In this document: positions 23 through 10,152 of the stretch, piece by piece
Layout: the number at the start of each line of letters is the position of its first letter
Position numbering within the stretch: the first letter of the stretch is position 1
UHGV virus genome: UHGV-0155057
DNA from: a virus
DNA length: 10,202 bases
Strand: one strand, 5' to 3'
Position numbers and translations under genes: made by a program
Notes under the pieces: model-generated
Database searches by the model: none
Seen by the model: the letters and a program-made list of their open reading frames with translations, nothing else
What the model was told of the DNA's origin: nothing

Positions 23-51
23 AAAGAGCGCCAACAAGGCGCTCTTTTTTT
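23..51. terminator. Bidirectional rho-independent terminator hairpin at the 3' end of the tailspike gene
   Basis: Inverted repeat 23-32 / 38-47 (aaagagcgcc ... ggcgctcttt), 10-bp stem with 5-nt loop aacaa, followed on the plus strand by a T-run through 51 and preceded by an A-run. Tailspike stop codon (complement of 50-52) abuts the stem. The U-tract is good on the plus strand and weaker on the minus strand. Confidence 0.5.
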
Positions 52-2032
52 AAAATCCAACGTTATCGTCCAATACAGCACCAGTGCCTGTAGAGTTAAC
101 TCCATCTGCAACGCTATTCCATCTTGTCCCGATAACCGTGTTATTCACACCTGCTTCACGCACTGCGGAACCTGAACCACCAGATGATGAAATAGTTGAA
201 TTTCTTAACTGAATACCTCTTGATTTTACGTCTATATAGATTCCGGCCTGAGATGTATTGGAGTAATCAAAGTTACTTATTGAGTTACCTGAAGCTATTA
301 CGGCAATACTGTTCTCAAATCTTAACCCCTCCATACGTGTATTTCTAATAACGTTATTCGACACAATACCAATAGTTAGACCAACAATAAGTATTCCTTG
401 CGTGTTATTAGATAAACCTCTTGTGCCTGCATTATCAACAATATTGTTTGAGATATTAAACCCGTTAAAATTATTTGTTACCTCGTCCCTGTATACGTAA
501 ATTCCAGCGATGGTAGAATCAGTTATCGTATTACCAGTTATGACAATATCTGTCATGTTTTGGCTTTCCCATTCTCCTGCGGCTCCATACACTCTTATTC
601 CGCGTTTGCAGTTTGTTATTGTATTTCCACTAACTACGTGTCCCTTGCAGTTTAGATCACCAAAAAAGATACCATCATCTCCGGATGAAAGTTTATTGTT
701 TTCGATGCGACTAAAGTCACATCTTTGGTTATCGATAGCGTTACCTAAGAATCCTTCTATCGTGTTTCCTGATGATGAGAAGTGTTTTTGGCTTTGGGCG
801 CTTACACCCTGATTATATGGATATCCTGGTTTACCTGATATATAACAATCTTTTACGCTGTTGTAGTATGCATAAGATTCGTTAAGTTCAGGATATGTAT
901 ATGGCTGTCTAAAAAAAACTCCCCAATTGCATGAACTAAAATAACAATCTTTTACAGTGCAACCTGAAACCCCGTCAAATATTATAGTTGTTCTGTCGTA
1001 ATCTATTCCATCATTTCCACAGTTATTGGCGAAACATTTTTCAATTGTTACTCGAACACAGAAAAGATTATTATCATAGTCTCCAGATACTCCTACAAAT
1101 GGTTTTTTAAGGTCAGTCGCTCTGCATTTGTAGATGTGTATATCAGAAAGACCAGCGTTGACAATTACCCCTCTGCTTGTTAATCCATTGGAACCATCGA
1201 AAATAATGTTTTCTATTGCCGAATTACTACCTGTAAATCTCAGCATAACGGCATTGCTTGCTTTCGACTCAGTTATTGTTGCATTTTTAAATGTTTTACC
1301 ATGCTGAATTTGTATACCATTACCTGATACAAGGTATGTGTTTGCAACACCATCAATATTGCTTGATGAAGCAATTGCATTATTAACAGCTTCCGTGTCA
1401 TCAGTAATACCGTCTCCATAAGCTCCAAACATCAATGGGTTTACTACATCAGCATTAATGCGTAACCAAGCCGAGCCACCAACAGTTTTAACTATAGTCC
1501 CGTTGTTATCAGAGTAAGATTCACCATGTAAAACAGCGCGAAATCTACCACCACCAATCCCTGTTCCATCTGTGTGTTGCTTAAGAGTTATTATTTGGCC
1601 ATCAACCGTTGGCTCTATTGTTCGTAATGTGACAATGTCTGGACATACTCCTATATATTTTTGCCCATCAAAAGAAGAGAGTCTCTGCTCAAGCTGATCC
1701 GGGTCATACTTCAGCACATTAGGAAAATAGAACTGCTGCGCACCGTACGCATCATAAACAGCCATAGAATGGCCTTGCACAGTTACGAATTTGGCAATCT
1801 GTCCGTTATATACAGGATAACCAGCAGTGTTAATGATGATTGGTTGCGATACAGGAACGTGAGAGCCGTCTTCGTTCTCCACATAAACCTGAATCTGGTT
1901 TTCAGGATTTACAGGGTCAGTGTCAATTTTACCGATATAAATTTTGCCATTGGCTACAGCTTTAAAAGAACGAGCCATAGTGAAGAGTTGAGAAGGCATG
2001 CTTACCACAACATTTGCGGTGATATCTGACAT
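50..2032 (-). CDS. Phage tailspike protein: P22 gp9-type N-terminal head-binding domain plus a divergent right-handed beta-helix receptor-binding/depolymerase domain (660 aa)
   Basis: The track ORF 50-2080 contains [70 protein letters not shown], which from memory closely matches the first ~110 residues of P22 tailspike ([13 protein letters not shown]...[25 protein letters not shown]...). I trimmed the start to the ATG at complement 2030-2032 ([10 protein letters not shown]), which has GGAG 8 nt upstream on the minus strand (tggagcaatgaaATG). The remainder is rich in N/G/S/T/I/V repeats typical of parallel beta-helix tailspikes. Confidence 0.85.
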
Positions 2033-2057
2033 TTCATTGCTCCAGACGAATGATATG

Positions 2058-2153: not shown

Positions 2154-2414
2154 ATGTACAGCAAATACGACGAGGCGCAGTTTCACTTGAGACTTCCGCA
2201 TGAACTCCACGCGAAAATTAAACAGCGTGCGAAGATGAATAACAGATCGCTGAACTCAGAGATAATTGCAGCGATTGAGGAATCATTGGATAAACAAAGC
2301 TCTGCATCAGTTTACATTGACGATGCAGAGCTTATGGCAGAACAACAATCTGATATGGTTAAGAAAATTGTCTTTGATACGCTCAAGGAGCTATATAAAA
2401 AAGACAGCAACTAA
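2154..2414 (+). CDS. mnt: Mnt-like ribbon-helix-helix (Arc/MetJ family) transcriptional repressor (86 aa)
   Basis: The translation MYSKYDEAQFHLRLPHELHAKIKQRAKMNNRSLNSEIIAAIEESLDK...DDAELMAEQQSDMVKKIVFDTLKELYKKDSN aligns by eye with P22 Mnt as I recall it (...RMPMEVREKLKFRAEANGRSMNSELLQIVQDALSK...NDAERLADEQSELVKKMVFDTLKDLYKKTT). Start chosen at ATG 2154 (GGTGAGG 8 nt upstream) rather than the track start at 2121, to match Mnt length. It is transcribed opposite to the late operon, as in P22. Confidence 0.75.
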   Translation: MYSKYDEAQFHLRLPHELHAKIKQRAKMNNRSLNSEIIAAIEESLDKQSSASVYIDDAELMAEQQSDMVKKIVFDTLKELYKKDSN

Positions 2415-2434
2415 CCATCCATTACGGAGGATTT

Positions 2435-2512
2435 ATGCAAAGAGATATGATGAATATTGCGTTCTACATATTTGGTTTTTGCACGTTCCTGGTGTTTGAA
2501 AAGCTATTCTGA
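2435..2512 (+). CDS. Possible 25-aa hydrophobic peptide (MQRDMMNIAFYIFGFCTFLVFEKLF) immediately downstream of mnt; speculative
   Basis: ATG at 2435 is preceded by CGGAGG (2425-2430, short 4-nt spacer), 21 nt after the mnt stop. The peptide has a strongly hydrophobic core resembling a single transmembrane segment. It sits where P22 carries sieA, and its 3' end overlaps the convergent gp16-like stop. No homology evidence. Confidence 0.25.
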   Translation: MQRDMMNIAFYIFGFCTFLVFEKLF

Positions 2513-4501
2513 CAACGCATCAGACTTAGCCCCCTGCGTCAGAGCGTTAATTGCCTTTTGTGCCTGCTGCATTGCTTTCTCAAAGGCTGTTGATCCGCGT
2601 GGGGTGTTTGCCATTCGGAGCATTGCATTTCTGAATGGTTCGCTCTCATAGGCGCGAGTAAGAAGTCCGTAGCTTACTGCTGCGCCAGTTGTCGCTGGGT
2701 TCATTGCCGTCCCATACCCAATAATGAACGGGATAGTTTGCTGCCCTGTAGGTGTTGTTACTGCCGCTTTTGCAGCCTGCTGCGTGGATTGCAGGTAGTT
2801 TTTTAATCCATTCAGATAAGCAGCGTCCTGCCCCTTAAATGTGATGCCAGTCTGGTTTTGCAGGATGTTAAGCTGCCGAAGGAACTGGTCAGGGGAACCA
2901 CCTGATTTCTCCATCGCCTTTCCAATGATGCCATTGCGCATTTGCGCCCTGCCAACACGACCAACTGAGTTATACAGAGTCTTAATTTCCGATTTGTTCT
3001 TGCTGAATAGCATGTTGTTGACAACTTCTGGCGTCAGATCGCCTTTCATGAGAACATTCTTCAGCCTGGTATTCTTGAGTTTCGCTGCTTCGTCAGCATA
3101 GACGGCATTGGCCTGCTGATATTTACGGAGAGTATCGTTGCCAAGATTCTGACCAATGGCACCATTGATATCGTCGGTCATTGCCTTGTAAACGCGCTGA
3201 ATGGCAGCATCGGAACGGTTTGGTAACACTGGTCGCTCACCCTTCACGTCCATTCTGAACTGGCTGCGCAGATCGCTTAATTGCTTCAAATCCAGATTTA
3301 CCGGACCATCAGGACCAGCATTGCGAACAAGCTCATCACGATAGGACTGAAGTTTTGAAATAGTCTCGTTATCAGCAACCTTACCAAGCTTCTGCAGGTT
3401 AGATATTTCTGTATCAATCTGCTGAATTGCTCTTGCAGGCTGAATGTTTATTCCCGCCATAGCATTCTGAACCTGCTCCAGTCGATTTCCTGCAGCGCGA
3501 CGAATTCCTGATGTTTTCGCTTTAAGGCTGTCAATAACAACCGCTGGATCATACTCACCGAATTTATCAGCAAATCTCTGAACCAACTGGCTTCTCGCTT
3601 CCTGTTGCGTTGCTCTCATTCCGCTTGTGCCAGCCAGGGGGATATTTTCTGCTGTCGTTTGCGCCATTTTTCCGACGCGGGAAGTAGGCTGTAACAGGTC
3701 GGTGGTGTGCAGAGGCACTCCTTCACGCTCTGCAAATCTGATAGCTTGCTGCGCTTCTGGTGCAATAGCACCACGAACGCCACGATAAGCAGCGCCTAAT
3801 CCACGTCCGGCAGCGTTAATAGCGCCGCCAGCCAGAACGCCAACGCCTAAATCGGTAGCGAGTGCTTCCGCATCATCTTTCGCACTATTTGCAGCAAGTG
3901 ACCCGACTGCGTTTTCAGCGAGAAGGCGAGTTGCACCCTGAGCGATTCTACCAGCGAGTGTTGGTGCCTGTGTTGCCGCTCTCTCAATGCCAGCAGGAGT
4001 GAGGTAAGGCAATGCCTCAGAAAATACCCTGCCCTCTGTAGTTTGTGGAGTCAGCGCGCCTTGCTGAAGGCCAAAGTCCTGCTCTAATCCCTGCGTTGTT
4101 ACTCGTGGCGCTGGGTGATATGTCCCATCGCCAATTCCGAGTTTACCGCCAGCCCAAGCCGCCGCGCTTGTTACAGCATCGGCAACTGATGCAGGTATGT
4201 TTGCCACGTTCACGCCAGCCTGCACCAGTCCGCGACCAGTCTCTTTTACTGCTTCACCAAGATCAGACATAAATCCACTTTGCTGTGGTTGTTGCTGTGC
4301 TACTGGTTGTTGTGTCTCCACTGGCTGCACAGATGGCAATGGATAGGCAGCATAGAAAGCTTGCTTAGCCTGCTCTGCATTTTCTCCGGCTTGCGGGGCA
4401 ACGACTTCATTGAAGTATTGCTCCTGAGCCTGCGCTTTTTGTTCTGGTGCTAACGCCTGATACTGTGGAGAGGCGATAACATCTTTCCATGCTTTAGCCA
4501 T
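2504..4501 (-). CDS. Phage ejection (DNA-transfer/injection) protein, P22 gp16-like by synteny (665 aa)
   Basis: Long minus-strand ORF with an Ala/Gly/Gln-rich composition typical of podovirus ejection proteins. It is the last late gene before the mnt/tailspike region, the position of gene 16 in P22. Its start overlaps the upstream stop as TAATG (complement of 4499-4503), indicating translational coupling. Confidence 0.65.
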   Translation of the reverse strand: MAKAWKDVIASPQYQALAPEQKAQAQEQYFNEVVAPQAGENAEQAKQAFYAAYPLPSVQPVETQQPVAQQQPQQSGFMSDLGEAVKETGRGLVQAGVNVANIPASVADAVTSAAAWAGGKLGIGDGTYHPAPRVTTQGLEQDFGLQQGALTPQTTEGRVFSEALPYLTPAGIERAATQAPTLAGRIAQGATRLLAENAVGSLAANSAKDDAEALATDLGVGVLAGGAINAAGRGLGAAYRGVRGAIAPEAQQAIRFAEREGVPLHTTDLLQPTSRVGKMAQTTAENIPLAGTSGMRATQQEARSQLVQRFADKFGEYDPAVVIDSLKAKTSGIRRAAGNRLEQVQNAMAGINIQPARAIQQIDTEISNLQKLGKVADNETISKLQSYRDELVRNAGPDGPVNLDLKQLSDLRSQFRMDVKGERPVLPNRSDAAIQRVYKAMTDDINGAIGQNLGNDTLRKYQQANAVYADEAAKLKNTRLKNVLMKGDLTPEVVNNMLFSKNKSEIKTLYNSVGRVGRAQMRNGIIGKAMEKSGGSPDQFLRQLNILQNQTGITFKGQDAAYLNGLKNYLQSTQQAAKAAVTTPTGQQTIPFIIGYGTAMNPATTGAAVSYGLLTRAYESEPFRNAMLRMANTPRGSTAFEKAMQQAQKAINALTQGAKSDALSE

Positions 4502-5616
4502 TAATCACCCCATAGTGAAGAAAAGTTACTGCTGGCTGCTGGCTGTGATACCTGTGCAGGTTGAGATTGCTGCCGCTGAGATTTACCAACATTAACGTTA
4601 TATTGTTGGTTGTAATTGTTGGTGTATTCCTGAATCTCACGAATCGACTGCTGCATAGCCTCCGGGCTTGAATAGTCAACCTGCGGCATCCCCTGAAAAT
4701 ACATCTTCGCTTCTGCAACGGTGTTAATACCACTGGCACCCATGTCCCTTGCTGCTGCCACCCCCTGATTCTGCATTCTTCCCTGAATACGTTGTGCTGA
4801 GTTATATAACTGGCGCTGCTCTTTTCCTGTTAATCGGCTGCGAACATCAGCACCAATTGCCGGGTTACCTGCACCGCCTGTCATTCCTGTCATGAAATCG
4901 AGAGCAGAAGCGTCTGCATTTGCGATCGCGTCGATATCCTTCTTCATGGCATAGTTTTGTGCTGATGCAGACGATGTTGCAGGCGCTGCGATTGAACTGG
5001 CAGGAACGCGAACCATATTCCCCTCGTTGTCGATGCCTTCGTAGAACGCATTAGCCCCAGCGCCGTGAAGTTTCCCGCCTACCGTTACAGTTCTGCCATC
5101 TGATAACTGAACTGTACGCTCATCATTACCAGCGGTTCCTCTTGTTGACGCTCTCTGCATTGCCAAATCCTGCCCGCGTCGCGCAGTAGAAGCAGATAAA
5201 TCCTGACCGCGCATCGTGATGTTCTGACCTCGTGCTGTTAGCGCCTCGCCAGCCTGATTGCTGCGGATTGTCTCTGCAAGTTTTCCGCGATCAATCTCAC
5301 GCCCAACGATTCTGTCTTGCGCCTGAAAATATTGTTCTGGACCAAGAGCAGCCATTCCAAGGTGATCAACAAACTCACCAAATCCTGAAGGATTCTGCTG
5401 ATACATCTGAGCAACGTTATTAGGGTCAACACCGACGCGAGTCAGTTCCTTGGCGTTGTTTTGCAGCCATGATTGCATTGCTTCTGGAGACGATGACGCA
5501 AGGCGTGCGCCAGCCGCTAAGGTGCCGATAGAATTACGCTGGTCTTCATCAATGAATCCCATGCCTTTACGAACGGATTCAATCTGGTCTGGATATTGAG
5601 TAGCCAACTGACGCAA
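4501..5616 (-). CDS. Phage ejection protein, P22 gp20-like, apparently 5'-truncated (likely gene remnant)
   Basis: The minus-strand frame is open only up to 5640 (in-frame stop at complement 5641-5643). The track start at 5616 is TTG and no ATG follows until codon 19. The longest possible product is about 379 aa against roughly 430-470 aa remembered for gp20 homologues. Its 3' end is coupled to the gp16-like start. Assignment is by synteny and composition only. Confidence 0.5.
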
Positions 5617-5640
5617 AGCACCGCGATGGCAAGGTGTGGG
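5604..5640. other. Putative deletion/recombination junction where a 5'-truncated late gene meets a 5'-truncated early-left gene head-to-head
   Basis: The plus-strand recombinase frame opens only at 5604 (in-frame TAG at 5601-5603) and the minus-strand gp20-like frame closes at 5640. Both genes lack their expected N-termini and the two open frames overlap within this 37 bp. Confidence 0.5.
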
Positions 5641-6254
5641 CTATGGTGCTGGCTTATGTCACGAACCGGGCAATCATGAAACGCCTGGACGATGTTTGTG
5701 GCAAAGCAGGATGGCGCAATGAATACCGCGACATTCCCAACAACGGCGGCGTTGAATGCGGCATATCAATAAAGATTGATTCCGAATGGGTAACCAAATG
5801 GGATGCTGCTGAAAACACGCAGGTAGAAGCCGTCAAAGGTGGTCGTTCAGGTGCAATGAAGCGCGCTGCCGTTCAGTGGGGAATCGGTCGGTATCTGTAT
5901 AACCTTGAGGAAGGTTTCGCACAAACATCTCTCGACAAAAAGCAGGGATGGCACAGGGCAAAACTCAAGGATGGAACAGGATTTTACTGGCTCCCTCCAT
6001 CGCTGCCAGGCTGGGCAATCCCAGCATCAGATAACAAACCATCACCAGAAAATACCAACCAGAAATCTCCATCGGTTGACTGCGAGCAAATCCTGAAAGA
6101 CTTCAGCGATTATGCGTCAACAGAAACTGACAAGAAAAAACTCATCGAGCGTTATCAGCGTGACTGGCAATTAATGGCTGGCAACGAGGAGGCGCAGGCT
6201 AAATGCGTTCAGGTAATGAACATCAGAGTTAACGAACTAAAACAGGCGGCATAG
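5634..6254 (+). CDS. Rad52/Sak-family single-strand annealing protein (phage recombinase), apparently N-terminally truncated
   Basis: Contains [21 protein letters not shown] and [23 protein letters not shown], which I recognise as the conserved core of Rad52-like phage annealing proteins. The frame opens only at 5604 and roughly 25-35 N-terminal residues appear missing. Possible starts are GTG 5634 (track) or ATG 5643, which has AAGG 8 nt upstream. Confidence 0.6.
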
Positions 6255-6770
6255 ATGGCAAGCAGAGGCGTAAATAAGGTGATCATTATTGGTCGCCTTG
6301 GGCATGATCCAGAAATCAGATATTCACCATCAGGAACGGCATTTGCAAACCTTACAGTTGCTACGTCAGAACAATGGCGTGATAAGCAAACTGGAGAGCA
6401 AAAGGAGCAGACGGAGTGGCACCGTGTGGTAATGAGCGGGAAACTGGCAGAAATTGCCAGCGAATATCTGCGAAAAGGCTCTGAGGTTTATCTTGAAGGA
6501 AAATTGCGGACAAGAAAATGGCAGGATCAAAGCGGACAGGATCGGTTCACTACCGAAGTTATCGTGGGCGTTGGTGGAACCATGCAAATGCTTGGTGGCA
6601 AGCAAGGAAGCAATGAACAGTCTTCACCTCAGCGAAATAACGGCCAGCAACAAAGACAGCAATCTCAGCAGCATGGGAATCACAGCGAACCACCTGTGGA
6701 TTTTGACGACGATATACCCTTTGCGCCAGTAACTCTCCCCTTCCCTCGTCACGCTATTCACGCAATTTAA
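6255..6770 (+). CDS. ssb: Single-stranded DNA-binding protein (SSB) with a 15-residue extension beyond the canonical C-terminal DDDIPF
   Basis: [98 protein letters not shown]...DFDDDIPF closely matches E. coli SSB across the OB fold and acidic tip. The ATG at 6255 directly follows the upstream stop. The ORF continues as [15 protein letters not shown] (6723-6767) before TAA at 6768-6770. Confidence 0.9.
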
Positions 6771-6778
6771 GGACTTAC

Positions 6779-7327
6779 ATGAATCACTTGATGGTTGACC
6801 TTGAAACAATGGGCAACGGGCCATACGCGCCTGTTATTTCTATTGGGGCGGTATTCTTTGACCCGAATACCGGAGAAACAGGAGAAGAGTTCTCGGTAAA
6901 TATCTCGCTTGAGTCATCAATGCGATATCGGGCGCGTCCTGACGCTTCAACGATTTTATGGTGGATGGAACAGAGTGAAGAAGCCAGAAAATCGCTAACC
7001 AGCAACACTCAAGAGCTTTCAACGGCTCTTTCATGGTTATCTGAATTCATCATAAAGAACGCTAACCACAAATTCGTTCAGGTTTGGGGGAATGGAGCAT
7101 CATTTGACTGCGTTATTCTCCGAAACAGTTATTCGCTGACAGGGCAGCCAGTTCCGTGGCAGTGGTGGAATGACCGCGACGTAAGAACAATCGTCGAACT
7201 TGGGAAGGTAATAGGATTCGACCCTAAGCGAGATATGCCATTCAAAGGAACTCGCCACAACGCGCTTGATGATGCCATTCACCAAGCCAAATACGTTTCA
7301 GCGATCTGGAAAAAGTTAGCTAAATAA
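6779..7327 (+). CDS. DEDDh-type 3'-5' exonuclease (DnaQ-like fold), 182 aa
   Basis: Exo motifs are readable: MVDLETMG (Exo I, D-x-E), VWGNGASFDCVIL (Exo II) and TRHNALDDAIHQAKY (Exo III, H-x3-D). AAGGA RBS sits 6-7 nt upstream of the ATG at 6779. Confidence 0.8.
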   Translation: MNHLMVDLETMGNGPYAPVISIGAVFFDPNTGETGEEFSVNISLESSMRYRARPDASTILWWMEQSEEARKSLTSNTQELSTALSWLSEFIIKNANHKFVQVWGNGASFDCVILRNSYSLTGQPVPWQWWNDRDVRTIVELGKVIGFDPKRDMPFKGTRHNALDDAIHQAKYVSAIWKKLAK

Positions 7328-7343
7328 TCAACAGGAGAAAACC

Positions 7344-7637
7344 ATGCCAGCGCCTCTGTATGGTGCGGATGACCCGCGCCGCTGTTCCGGCAATTCCGTA
7401 TCGGAGGTGCTGGATAAATTCAGAAAAAACTACGACCTGATAATGTCGCTACCGCAGGAAACGAAAGAGGAAAAGGAATTTCGCCATTGTATATGGCTTG
7501 CAGAGAAAGAAGAACGCGAGCGAATTTACCAGACATCAATCCGACCATTCCGCAAAGCCACATATACCCACTTCCCTGAAATTGACCCGCGCCTGCGTAA
7601 TTACCGCTCACGCTATGGCGCTATCAGTAATGACTGA
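7344..7637 (+). CDS. Hypothetical early-left accessory protein (97 aa)
   Basis: ATG at 7344 with AGGAG 7 nt upstream. Charged, protein-like composition, same strand and tightly packed with its neighbours. No family recognised. Confidence 0.6.
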   Translation: MPAPLYGADDPRRCSGNSVSEVLDKFRKNYDLIMSLPQETKEEKEFRHCIWLAEKEERERIYQTSIRPFRKATYTHFPEIDPRLRNYRSRYGAISND

Positions 7638-7647
7638 GGAATTAACA

Positions 7648-7938
7648 ATGAAAACAATGAAGCTAAACATCGACCTCGGAAAATACGTTATTACCGGAAC
7701 CAAACACGATCTGATTCTTAGCGAAAGAGGAATTATCAAAGAAGGCGAGAATGCAGGGAAAGAAACACTAAGCCGTATCGGTTATTACAGCAAGTTTGAG
7801 CATCTGGTTAAAGAATTATGCAACCGTGAAATCCTGTTATCTCAGGCGCAGACGCTACAGGATATTCAGCAACATATCGAGACTTTAGGTGTGTCACTTA
7901 GCATGGCTATTGACCAGTTAGTGGAGAGTAAATCATGA
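7648..7938 (+). CDS. Hypothetical early-left accessory protein (96 aa)
   Basis: I chose ATG 7648 ([17 protein letters not shown]...), which has GAGGA 7 nt upstream and begins 11 nt after the upstream stop. The longer track ORF from 7498 would overlap the preceding gene by 140 nt in another frame. Confidence 0.6.
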
Positions 7939-8099
7939 GAGGACTTGCATACAATCCCGGCATTCTTCCGGCAGAAATGATTATTCGCCAACGCGTAAAG
8001 CCAATGCCATCGAGAGAGGAATTGCTTAAAAGAAATAGTTTCGGTTCTGTTAATGACAACAAATATCTGAATGCGATATGGCGGAGTGGGAAGAAATGA
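7935..8099 (+). CDS. Hypothetical small protein (54 aa; below the track's apparent size cutoff)
   Basis: The start ATG overlaps the upstream stop as ATGA (7935-7938) and the stop overlaps the next start as ATGA (8096-8099). Translation is [54 protein letters not shown]. Support is coupling and context only. Confidence 0.4.
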
Positions 8100-8692
8100 A
8101 ACAAATGTCACTAATTGAGATGGATGGATTTCTGAAAGGTAAATGCATCCCACGAGATTTAAAGGTTAACGAAACAAACGCTGAATATCTGGTGCGTAAA
8201 TTTGCTGAAGCGGAGGCCAAGTGCGCGGCGCTGGCAGCGGAGAATACGGGGCTGAAGTCTGGCGCTATGGACGAAATCAAGGTTATCAACCGTGGAGGGC
8301 AGGCATATTGTGTAAAAGATGGAGTGCAAGTTAATCCCATGTATGCAAGAGGGTGGAATGACTATCGCGCAAAGTCTATGCAATCATACACCCCAGCCAC
8401 CGATGCTTTCCTGGCTGGAGTGCGGGCCAGCTCCATTCCTGAAGGTTACGTGCTTGTACCTCAACAAATTTTTCTCAAACCATCCGACATTGAATCTATT
8501 TGCTCTCAATGTGGTGACGGTCATGAATCTGGGTACGGTGATTTTACTGATGGGCTGCTGTGGATTGGCAACATTCAATGTGACGACGGAAGTATTGTCC
8601 ACGGACTGCATATCTCATCAGCCGATTACTCAGAGGAAGGCGGTGTAACAGTTTGCGAGTTCGACGCAGGCATGTGCATCAAAGGAGAGTGA
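8096..8692 (+). CDS. Hypothetical phage early protein (198 aa) with a coiled-coil-like N-terminal region and a Cys-rich C-terminal region
   Basis: ATG 8096 is coupled to the upstream stop; an alternative ATG at 8078 lacks an RBS. The C-terminal region carries CSQCGDGH...QCDDGS...VCEFDAGMC, suggesting possible metal binding. No family recognised with confidence. Confidence 0.6.
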
Positions 8693-8693
8693 T

Positions 8694-9377
8694 ATGAGCA
8701 CTATCACTAAAGAACGTATCGAATTGTTCATTAAATCCCCGCTTAAAAACGGGCTTACCCGTGGCGAACAAATGGAACTGGCACGGATTGCTCTGGCATC
8801 GCTGGAAGCTGAAAAGGTAACTCTCTATCGCGAGCGAAATCCCTACAATGGCATGACGACCGGATGGCAGGAATTGACCGAGCAGGAATACGAGTTTGTC
8901 AAAGATAACGCCAGTGAAAACGCCGAATTTCGTACTGTGTACACCGCACCGCCAGCGCCGGTAGTACCTGCTGCATTACCTGAGAACGACGATGAGGACG
9001 GGCAGGACATTGATTATCTTGAGCCATCTGAAGTTTACGCGCTTGGGCGAACAGCTGGCTGGAACGCCTGCCGTGCTGCCATGCTTCAGGGTAAATCCGA
9101 ACAACCACAAAACGCACAACAAAATATTCCGGAAAATATTCCCGGTGGCAACTCTCCGGTAACTCCGGATGGTTGGATAAGCTGTAGTGAGCGAATGCCG
9201 GAAGAAACGGGTGACATTATTGTTGTTTCGGATGGCATTGTAATGTCAGGGATTTCTTATTCTCGTCGTGACGGGTTCTATATGGCCGCATTGGAGTACG
9301 ACGACGACGAACCAATTGACGGTGTAACCCACTGGATGCCTCTACCAGAACCGCCGCAGGAGGTTAACGGTGGCTAA
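8694..9377 (+). CDS. Eaa-like early protein with a C-terminal DUF551-type domain (227 aa)
   Basis: AGGAG 6 nt upstream of ATG 8694. The C-terminal segment PDGWISCSERMPEE...DGVTHWMPLPEPP resembles the DUF551 signature seen in prophage Eaa proteins, recalled from memory. An acidic linker precedes it. Confidence 0.65.
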   Translation: MSTITKERIELFIKSPLKNGLTRGEQMELARIALASLEAEKVTLYRERNPYNGMTTGWQELTEQEYEFVKDNASENAEFRTVYTAPPAPVVPAALPENDDEDGQDIDYLEPSEVYALGRTAGWNACRAAMLQGKSEQPQNAQQNIPENIPGGNSPVTPDGWISCSERMPEETGDIIVVSDGIVMSGISYSRRDGFYMAALEYDDDEPIDGVTHWMPLPEPPQEVNGG

Positions 9378-9654
9378 CCTGCAACTTGCCGTTAAAGGTG
9401 AATACTTCGATGCCATGATTCGCAGAGAGAAAACAGAAGAGTATCGCCTGTGTAATGACTATTGGAATAAGCGAATTATGTTCCGGGAGTATGACCGCCT
9501 GATTATCACAAAGGGATATCCGAAGCGCGACGACTACAGCCGTAGAATTGACGTCCCGTATGACGGATATGAAATAAAGACAATCACACATCCACACTTC
9601 GGCGATAAACCGGTAAAGGTATTCGCGATAAAGGTGAATATCGGCAATGAATAA
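9370..9654 (+). CDS. ASCH / PUA-like (DUF3850-type) domain protein (94 aa)
   Basis: GTG start at 9370 with GGAGG 7 nt upstream, overlapping the upstream gene by 8 nt. The N-terminus (L.VKGEYFDAMIRREKTEEYRLCND) fits the ASCH-type K-x-x-E-x-R pattern and the small beta-barrel length. Confidence 0.65.
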   Translation: MANLQLAVKGEYFDAMIRREKTEEYRLCNDYWNKRIMFREYDRLIITKGYPKRDDYSRRIDVPYDGYEIKTITHPHFGDKPVKVFAIKVNIGNE

Positions 9655-9688
9655 CAATCCTCGCACTCGCGGGGATTTCTTTTATCTG

Positions 9689-9714
9689 AACTCGCTACGG
9701 CGAGTTTTGTTTTA
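9689..9714 (+). terminator. Putative weak intrinsic terminator or attenuator
   Basis: Hairpin aaCTCGC-tacg-GCGAGtt followed by the T-rich tract TTTTGTTTT. The GC stem is only 5 bp, so this is weak. Confidence 0.3.
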
Positions 9715-9726
9715 TGGAGATGATAA

Positions 9727-9894
9727 ATGCACTTCCGAGTCACAGGAGAATGGAATGGAGAGCCATTCAACAGAGTTATCGAAGCAGAGAACATCAACGA
9801 CTGCTATGACCACTGGATGCTATGGGCGCAGATAGCACATGCAGACATAACCAATATTCGAATTGAAGAACTGAAAGAACACCAAGCCGCCTGA
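9727..9894 (+). CDS. Hypothetical small protein (55 aa) between two terminator-like hairpins
   Basis: ATG 9727 with GGAG 7 nt upstream. Translation is MHFRVTGEWNGEPFNRVIEAENINDCYDHWMLWAQIAHADITNIRIEELKEHQAA. The TGA stop (9892-9894) lies in the loop of the downstream terminator. Preferred over the overlapping track ORF 9647-9835. Confidence 0.4.
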   Translation: MHFRVTGEWNGEPFNRVIEAENINDCYDHWMLWAQIAHADITNIRIEELKEHQAA

Positions 9895-9916: not shown

Positions 9917-9932
9917 TTGCAGGTTCGATTCC
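9917..9932. other. tRNA T-arm-like 16-mer (TTGCAGGTTCGATTCC); possible attachment-site core remnant, not a tRNA gene
   Basis: Contains the GGTTCGATTCC T-loop consensus with a 5' stem half, but no matching 3' T-stem, acceptor stem or upstream tRNA body. From memory it resembles the T-arm of an arginine tRNA (argW-type) used as an integration site by P22-like/KplE1-type elements. Confidence 0.3.
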
Positions 9933-9951: not shown

Positions 9952-10152
9952 ATGCAACACGAACTACAACCTGATTCACTGGTTGATTTGAAATTCATCA
10001 TGGCTGATACTGGCTTTGGTAAAACCTTCATCTATGACCGGATTAAGTCCGGCGACCTGCCTAAAGCCAAAGTTATCCACGGGCGAGCAAGATGGTTATA
10101 TCGTGACCATTGTGAATTCAAAAATAAGCTCTTAAGCCGCGCCAATGGGTAA
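9952..10152 (+). CDS. xis: Excisionase / recombination directionality factor, AlpA-family winged helix, TorI-like (66 aa)
   Basis: GGAG 9 nt upstream of ATG 9952. The translation (..LVDLKFIMADTGFGKTFIYDRIKSGDLPKAKVIHGRARWLYRDHCEFKNKLL..) matches the excisionase pattern of a helix, I/FYxxI/LKxGxxPK, then a G-R-x-x-RW wing. Its size and position at the prophage end are as for TorI of KplE1 and the Sf6/HK620 excisionases. Confidence 0.8.
   Translation: MQHELQPDSLVDLKFIMADTGFGKTFIYDRIKSGDLPKAKVIHGRARWLYRDHCEFKNKLLSRANG

Follow-up and report, generated by a model that had tools for sequence, protein, structure and literature searches.

KplE1 (CPS-53) of Escherichia coli K-12 occupies the argW tRNA-Arg site, with intS and torI at its opposite ends (PMC3509656, PMC2951348). 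It shares its recombination module with HK620 and Sf6, and it excises upon expression of TorI (PMC3509656). Other P22-like remnants of E. coli are centrally deleted, at argW in strains S1, SZQ1 and FDAARGOS_1248 and in the thrS-pfkB region in EC24. They show the same pattern of decay, in which the middle is gone and the two ends, one with tailspike/gp16 and the other with torI or int, are kept. In S1, a 312-nt fragment of gp20 is joined to a truncated Erf gene; in FDAARGOS_1248, a gp14 fragment adjoins a gene for an ASCH-domain protein; in SZQ1, a gp7 fragment lies near torI; and in EC24, a truncated gp20 and a tail-gene fragment lie beside a full-length Rad52 gene. As all breakpoints differ, from one another and from the one described here, these deletions are independent events.

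We analyzed a 10,202-nucleotide stretch of the viral genome UHGV-0155057, hereafter called the window. With a probability of about 0.9, it represents most of a 12.7-kb defective P22-like (Sf6/HK620-type) prophage integrated in E. coli at the tRNA gene argW and generated by a single internal deletion of ~25.4 kb, from one CGCGAT hexamer to another. The element resembles KplE1 in its attachment site, in the placement of intS and torI and in its size, both being ~10-13 kb long and unable to make virions. It differs from KplE1 in its cargo, i.e., a P22-type tailspike, mnt, gp16, a truncated gp20 and a Rad52/SSB/exonuclease/Abc2 early-left module. Moreover, its deletion scar is still legible, as two truncated genes and a 6-bp microhomology. 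As in strain S1, a gp20 fragment and a truncated recombinase gene are fused head to head.

Organization of the element

The features of the window are listed in Table 1. The full element is found on a longer contig, L007, which carries tRNA-Arg(CCT), the adjoining intS for a 385-aa integrase, torI and a gene for an acyltransferase. Of these, argW and intS lie outside the window, as do the att sites, with attR ~20-40 bp past its end. A 16-bp direct repeat, ATGGTGTCCCCTGCAG, forms the att core and is present at both ends of the element, 12,695 bp apart. The element is placed coherently between dsdC and argW/yfdC, and the dsd genes beside it share 99.3% identity with those of E. coli. Having int and xis at opposite prophage ends is the Sf6/HK620/KplE1 arrangement at argW, and the TorI-type recombination directionality factor, IntS, att core repeats and argW insertion together identify the recombination module of that group.

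Table 1 Features of the window. Early-left accessory genes were called and matched to Pfam on L007 (window position = 14502 - L007 position).
Feature	Position	Strand	Description
Tailspike gene	50..2032	-	Intact, 660 aa; P22-type head-binding N-terminus and beta-helix receptor-binding part; Pfam Head_binding, Phage_tail_beta, Beta_helix (identical gene in L007)
Mnt/Arc-family repressor gene	2154..2414	+	86 aa as called, 97 aa from upstream ATG; Pfam Arc, Repressor_Mnt (identical gene in L007)
gp16-type DNA ejection protein gene	2504..4501	-	Intact, 665 aa; Pfam Phage_P22_gp16; length as in phage Gally and B25FEP; 96% nucleotide identity
gp20-type ejection gene, 5'-truncated	4501..5627	-	Residues 89-462 of 462 kept; homology to Gally, B25FEP and SZQ1 stops at 5627
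Deletion junction CGCGAT	5622..5627	.	6-bp microhomology common to both parental genes; three-way alignments
Rad52/Rad22-family annealing-protein gene, 5'-truncated	5622..6254	+	Residues 25-235 of 235 kept; native ATG and SD lost
SSB gene	6255..6770	+	Intact, 171 aa; Pfam SSB
3'-5' exonuclease gene (Rv2179c-like)	6779..7327	+	Intact, 182 aa; length as in mEpX2 and B25FEP
Abc2-type anti-RecBCD gene	7344..7637	+	97 aa; Pfam Anti-RecBCD_p2
Early-left accessory genes	7648..9894	+	DUF5405 7648-7938; DUF2737 7935-8099; 198-aa ORF 8096-8692
Early-left accessory genes, continued		+	DUF551 8694-9377; 94-aa ORF 9370-9654; 55-aa ORF 9727-9894
torI, excisionase (recombination directionality factor) of the argW module	9952..10152	+	TorI 100% identical to RefSeq-annotated TorI; PMC3509656

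Between the att repeats of L007 there are no repressor, replication, lysis, terminase, portal or coat genes, which bears out the proposal of the initial annotation that the remnant is probably not inducible as a virion. Apart from the two genes at the junction, all ORFs of the 12.7-kb remnant are intact. Similarity of the tailspike to E. coli tailspikes is confined to window positions 1690-2048; the exact protein was found in remnants only, and no intact prophage with the same tailspike was found. Relatives' copies of the Mnt/Arc-family gene are annotated as 'Arc family DNA-binding protein'.

Truncation of the two junction genes

The gp20-type and Rad52-type frames overlap at 5604-5640, exactly where they had been predicted to collide, and the initial annotation was also right in stating that both genes lack their 5' ends. 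On the minus strand, the gp20-type ORF (4501..5616; 371 aa, TTG start) belongs to a frame that stays open to 5640, with a stop codon at 5641-5643, and continues for 8 codons into foreign sequence. BLASTP against the full-length gp20 of phage Gally (462 aa) aligned residues 89-462 with 98% identity, leaving 88 N-terminal residues missing. On the plus strand, the Rad52-type ORF (5634..6254; 206 aa, GTG start) lies in a frame open from 5604, after a stop codon at 5601-5603. Its BLASTP alignment with the full-length Rad52-family protein of mEpX2 (235 aa) covers residues 23-235 with 99% identity; true homology begins at R25, so that 24 codons are lost. Neither protein therefore aligns with its homologue over the full length.

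Both genes are cut within their Pfam domains. Inj_translocase (PF16928) scores 139.4 bits in the window against a gathering cutoff of 29.7, over profile positions 82-217 of 218, whereas full-length gp20 matches positions 1-217. Rad52_Rad22 (PF04098) scores 76.2 bits (cutoff 20.3) over positions 19-153, compared with 91.9 bits and positions 7-153 for the full-length homologue. Small as it is, the loss deprives the Rad52-family gene of its ribosome-binding site and start codon, and its domain of the first conserved portion. Searches of PDB sequences with the gp20-type and Rad52-family proteins gave no usable match for either.

An ATG at 5643, preceded by AAGGTG, lies within the Rad52 stump and yields the 203-aa product given by gene callers. 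Judged from the variation among 119 viral contigs with the same Rad52 allele, however, the 235-aa start is the real start of this gene, because its ATG is invariant, the GAGGTG upstream of it is largely conserved (a few haplotypes vary, at 3 of 6 positions), codons 14-26 show synonymous changes only, and a mosaic boundary lies directly upstream of the ATG. The 203-aa form as a short native isoform was rejected on the basis of the N-terminal Pfam coverage and the pattern of variation by codon position.

Position and size of the deletion

On either side of the junction, the window is collinear with the intact 39-kb argW prophage of E. coli B25FEP (NZ_CM177971.1), and its orientation is unchanged: window positions 2434-5627 correspond to L006 41652-38459 and positions 5615-6709 to L006 13056-11963, on the same strand. 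This P22-like (Lederbergvirus; Sf6/HK620-type) prophage has the gene order, orientation and attachment site of the remnant, and 96-98% nucleotide identity to it over gp16-gp20, Rad52-SSB, exonuclease-Abc2 and torI. Unlike the remnant, it encodes gp20 and Rad52 at full length (462 and 235 aa, respectively), and 25.4 kb separate its CGCGAT sites; the two also differ in the receptor-binding domain of the tailspike and in the gene for O-antigen modification. The segment missing from the window contains, in B25FEP, the immunity, replication, nin, lysis, terminase and head genes, the needle gene and gp7/gp14, in agreement with the modules that had been expected to be absent. The two hexamers are 25,414 bp apart in B25FEP, within the 25-30 kb first estimated, but the size of the deletion is approximate because its direct ancestor is unsampled and the mapping was made on a relative of 96-97% identity. 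Collinear distant flanks, truncated junction genes and the absence of essential lytic and lysogenic modules between the att sites characterize a defective prophage formed by internal deletion, the origin initially proposed.

In three-way alignments, gp20-type homology reaches 5627 and Rad52-type homology begins at 5622, so that CGCGAT is common to both. The hexamer is conserved at the Rad52-side parental site in 118 of the 119 viral contigs and at the gp20-side site in all four relatives (4/4). It is thus a direct repeat present at both parental sites and left in one copy at 5622-5627, as expected of a microhomology deletion. In a simulation with random breakpoint pairs in the intact relative, microhomology of at least 6 bp arose with P = 0.0016. 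Either microhomology or an IS scar had been envisaged for the region of frame overlap; the former is present, and an IS scar was rejected as all junction bases are parental. Every base at 5590-5665 was assigned to one parent or the other, with no filler bases or IS sequence, and no target-site duplication was found at the junction.

The junction recurs with 100% identity in L005, L007, L009, L018/L021, L023 and two contigs of 0.2-1 Mb. Several samples yielded it, in at least six contigs made with different assemblers in different projects (ENA samples SAMN06115426 and SAMN06115437, a Logan assembly, ERZ28018806/UEQJ01 and the two large contigs), so that it is not an assembly artefact. None of 5,426 complete E. 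coli genomes, 50,697 phage records or the one-genome-per-species contigs contains it, and neither do the 119 viral contigs, all of which have the intact site. Adjacency of gp20 and Rad52 genes was found in no intact phage or prophage among the complete E. coli genomes, phage records and viral contigs.

Proposed mechanism

The alignments establish the deletion, where it ends on either side and the microhomology: CGCGAT in the gp20 ejection gene was joined to the identical, directly repeated CGCGAT in the Rad52-family gene, with loss of gp7, gp14, the needle, head completion, coat, scaffold, portal, terminase and lysis genes, Q, nin, the replication genes, cro/cI/N and cIII/kil. We infer a single event of illegitimate recombination, mediated by the microhomology and independent of RecA (slippage or end joining). 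Six base pairs are short for slippage across 25 kb, which counts against this explanation.

The deletion leaves two divergent operon stumps, from which the native PL and Q-dependent late promoters are gone. A promoter scan near the junction found fewer sigma-70-like sites than in shuffled sequence, none of them positioned to drive either stump. Expression of the early-left genes in the remnant is doubtful, because the cI-cro immunity region, the expected site of PL, lies within the deletion and no convincing promoter was found near the junction.

Alternative origins of the junction

The Rad52 hexamer is directly bordered by an IS1 end or an IS10 end in other, unrelated assemblies, which leaves room for an IS-assisted multi-step history or for a local hot spot. 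Three independent rearrangement endpoints, the deletion, an IS1 insertion and an IS10 insertion, thereby fall within ~15 bp in different lineages. It seems unlikely that the 5' region of the Rad52 gene (window 5622-5636) is a hot spot of breakage or strand transfer, and that the 12.7-kb remnant is no neutral debris but has perhaps been kept, still able to excise, for the functions of TorI and of its acyltransferase gene.

An IS-assisted or multi-step origin has a low probability. In such a scheme IS1 would have inserted beside CGCGAT in both genes, followed by deletion between the two IS1 copies and excision of IS1 between the CGCGAT repeats; alternatively, smaller deletions would have succeeded one another. 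An IS1 terminus does abut CGCGATGGCAAGG at the exact junction position in contig L017, contig L019 starts at GATGGCAAGG, and an IS10 end abuts GGCAAAGTG directly after the hexamer in L016; stepwise decay is also known in the lineage, a further 2,456 bp being gone from L008. The IS-bearing loci, however, carry SNPs relative to the window and other genes downstream, and are therefore separate lineages; neither their IS1 nor their IS10 junction is present in the 5,426 complete genomes. The scheme calls for at least three events, besides an insertion of IS1 in gp20 by coincidence, and it must account for a window junction devoid of IS sequence and target-site duplication. Adjacent deletions promoted by IS1 or IS10 resemble the present one in being large and ending at a fixed point, but they leave the IS at the junction, where the window has none.

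A native arrangement, in which a viable phage would have a boundary between mosaic modules here or both genes would naturally occur as short isoforms, is refuted by the analyses made and retains very little probability. It would fit the high mosaicism of lambdoid phages and the fact that the 203-aa Rad52 product is called even in intact contexts, e.g., in L015. Against it, conserved Pfam profile positions are missing from both proteins, the 235-aa start is backed by the conservation described above, the canonical upstream sequence is present in 119/119 viral contigs, none of the 50,697 phage records covers at least 80% of the region, and genes for the head, packaging, lysis, replication and immunity are all missing from the 12.7-kb element. 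Finally, a chimeric assembly of two prophage fragments mis-joined at a short repeat has a negligible chance, for although the junction coincides with a 6-bp repeat and the window comes from a metagenome scaffold, 6 bp is far below any assembler k-mer, the same junction was recovered by different assemblers and projects, and the element has a coherent chromosomal setting.

Implications

A deletion between CGCGAT repeats represents ordinary prophage decay, of a kind that is well known although this instance is new. The remnant is a KplE1-like defective prophage for which virion formation, replication, packaging and lysis are impossible. By analogy with KplE1 it may still excise, because intS, torI and both att cores are kept, and its acyltransferase gene could be a conversion gene comparable to oac of Sf6.

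The finding has little importance beyond annotation. Both junction ORFs, for which gene callers now give 203-aa and 353/371-aa proteins, deserve annotation as pseudogenes, and it would be wrong to count the remnant among inducible prophages. It would provide a base-pair-resolved example of how a P22-like prophage turns into a KplE1-like cryptic element in one step and, together with the other independently deleted argW remnants, could serve as input for a survey of deletion breakpoints in prophage decay.

Organization of the remnant

Gene order was built from the list of ORFs together with gene calls and Pfam matches on L007, which derives from a public 70-kb metagenome scaffold and whose positions 14501..4300 (reverse strand) are 100% identical to the window. 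ORFs other than the pair at the junction are intact, with lengths equal to those of their homologues.

Coordinates of the features in the window
Feature	Position	Strand
Tailspike	50-2032	-
Mnt/Arc-family repressor	2154-2414	+
gp16 ejection protein	2504-4501	-
gp20-type ejection gene (Inj_translocase)	4501-5616	-
Rad52/Rad22-family gene	5634/5643-6254	+
SSB	6255-6770	+
3'-5' exonuclease	6779-7327	+
Abc2 anti-RecBCD	7344-7637	+
Early-left accessory genes (six, small)	7648-9894	+
torI	9952-10152	+

The receptor-binding part of the tailspike (window 50-1690) gave zero megablast matches across 5,426 complete genomes of E. coli; its top phage-protein match has about 31-35% identity (Enterobacter phage tail fibres), and the exact tailspike protein is recorded solely in copies of the present remnant. 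Window 5985-6095, corresponding to residues 129-164 of the full-length Rad52 homologue, bears a weak, non-significant likeness to Prp40 WW domains (E ~0.1).

On L007, the remnant sits between dsdC and argW/yfdC; the dsd flank shares 99.3% identity with E. coli. Copies of the direct repeat ATGGTGTCCCCTGCAG, 12,695 bp apart, mark the two ends of the remnant, and its genes beyond the window are an Acyl_transf_3 gene and, adjoining tRNA-Arg(CCT), a gene for a 385-aa integrase. Just 5' of torI (window 9917-9932; L007:4570-4585), 16 nt of the argW T-arm region, GGAATCGAACCTGCAA, are repeated exactly; this copy is distinct from the 16-bp att core repeat close to the end of the prophage.

Truncation of the two junction genes

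The gp20 and Rad52 stumps diverge from the junction with zero intergenic DNA. The gp20 frame is open up to 5640 and the Rad52 frame from 5604, matching exactly the collision within 5604-5640 described in the initial annotation. The proposed loss of both 5' ends is borne out by alignments that begin at residue 89 of the 462-aa gp20 of phage Gally (98% identity) and at residue 23-25 of the 235-aa Rad52-family protein of phage mEpX2 (99% identity). Pfam coverage is likewise reduced, to profile positions 82-217 for Inj_translocase (1-217 in the full-length protein) and 19-153 for Rad52_Rad22 (7-153).

Gene callers assign the Rad52 gene a 203-aa product starting at ATG 5643, behind AAGGTG (window 5631-5645). 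The same call is made when the upstream sequence is intact (L015; intact prophages L012-L015), and databases hold this mis-started version. The 235-aa start was examined in 119 IMG/VR contigs with the same Rad52 allele. Its ATG is invariant, the preceding GAGGTG is largely conserved (a few haplotypes vary, at 3/6 positions), codons 14-26 show synonymous variation only, and sequence mosaicism sets in just 5' of the ATG. Together, these features show that the window's copy of the gene is truly 5'-truncated; it lacks its start codon, ribosome-binding site and 24 codons.

A 25-kb deletion at a 6-bp microhomology

In a three-way comparison of the window with both parental sites of an intact relative, gp20-type sequence extends through 5627 and Rad52-type sequence begins at 5622, the two sharing the hexamer CGCGAT. 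A search for microhomology or IS scars at 5604-5640 had been proposed; this hexamer was found, with neither filler nor IS sequence at the junction. Gally, SZQ1, B25FEP and FDAARGOS_1248 all have the hexamer at the gp20 site, as do 118 of the 119 viral contigs at the Rad52 site. When 200,000 breakpoint pairs were drawn at random from the intact prophage, microhomology of at least 6 bp arose with P = 0.0016.

The intact relative at argW, in E. coli B25FEP, reads torI, early-left genes, Rad52, kil, cIII; cI, cro, cII, replication, nin, Q, lysis; terminase, portal, scaffold, coat, gp4, gp10, needle, gp14, gp7; gp20, gp16, tailspike, O-antigen gene, intS and tRNA-Arg. Both halves of the window are collinear with it on the same strand. 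In this relative, 25,414 bp separate the two copies of CGCGAT, in agreement with the 25-30 kb anticipated, and the immunity, replication, lysis, terminase and head genes presumed lost all lie between gp20 and Rad52. The remnant (12.7 kb) and the deleted segment (25.4 kb) sum to ~38 kb, which is normal for a P22-like genome. The truncations, the hexamer and the collinear relative show a simple, large internal prophage deletion, probably made by a single RecA-independent illegitimate recombination event.

An IS-assisted, multi-step origin is retained at low probability because IS ends unexpectedly coincide with the hexamer: L017 has an IS1 end that meets CGCGAT at the identical nucleotide (L017:1-40), contig L019, probably another case of an IS1 terminus at the hexamer, begins at GATGGCAAGG (L019:1-10), and an IS10 end abuts the base following the hexamer in L016 (L016:60-135). 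These loci differ from the window in SNPs and gene content and are therefore independent lineages, and neither IS junction was found in complete genomes. Among assemblies with this Rad52 allele, the window deletion, IS1 and IS10 provide three independent endpoints within ~15 bp (window 5622-5636), which may reflect coincidence or a local hot spot.

The junction itself recurs identically in a contig from a human-gut metagenome (L005), two ENA samples belonging to a single project (SAMN06115426, SAMN06115437), the Logan assembly SRR5106316, ERZ28018806 and two 0.2-1 Mb contigs, which rules out an assembly chimera. It was not found in the 5,426 complete E. coli genomes, 50,697 phage records or a one-genome-per-species set; with the truncations, this rules out native gp20-Rad52 adjacency. 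The arrangement is therefore genuine, though rare, and belongs to a single lineage. Copies of the remnant are at most a few SNPs apart, which indicates a recent event, not demonstrable selection.

GCA_044468065.1 (L008) carries the same remnant with flanks 99.9% identical and a further 2,456 bp gone (window 5106-7561; L008:9397-9399), from inside the gp20 stump to just past Abc2, with a 3-bp (ATA) overlap. The gap arose either through a second, nested deletion or through a larger deletion of independent origin.

Expression and relation to known remnants

The deleted segment includes both the cI-cro immunity region, the expected site of PL, and the region of the Q-dependent late promoter. Consensus-like sites were fewer than in shuffled sequence, and the promoter scan gave no suitably placed promoter for the stumps. 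Expression of the early-left accessory genes is thus doubtful. Plausible surviving expressed genes, from their own promoters, are mnt, intS, the acyltransferase gene and perhaps torI.

By location and recombination module, the closest known system is KplE1, the defective argW prophage of K-12. The argW recombination module is conserved and common to KplE1, HK620 and Sf6, and TorI is 100% identical to RefSeq TorI. Excision of KplE1 needs no more than TorI expression (PMC3509656).

P22-like remnants whose central deletions differ from this one are present in at least four more E. coli strains (L025:6820-7300, L024:8639-9032, L004:10815-11276, L001:8001-9589); those of S1, SZQ1, FDAARGOS_1248 and EC24 are independent, with different breakpoints. 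Strain S1 (L025) has its own head-to-head fusion, of a gp20 fragment (labeled "acyltransferase" in RefSeq) with a truncated ERF recombinase gene. The present remnant is a further instance of a well-known kind, the cryptic prophage formed by internal deletion.
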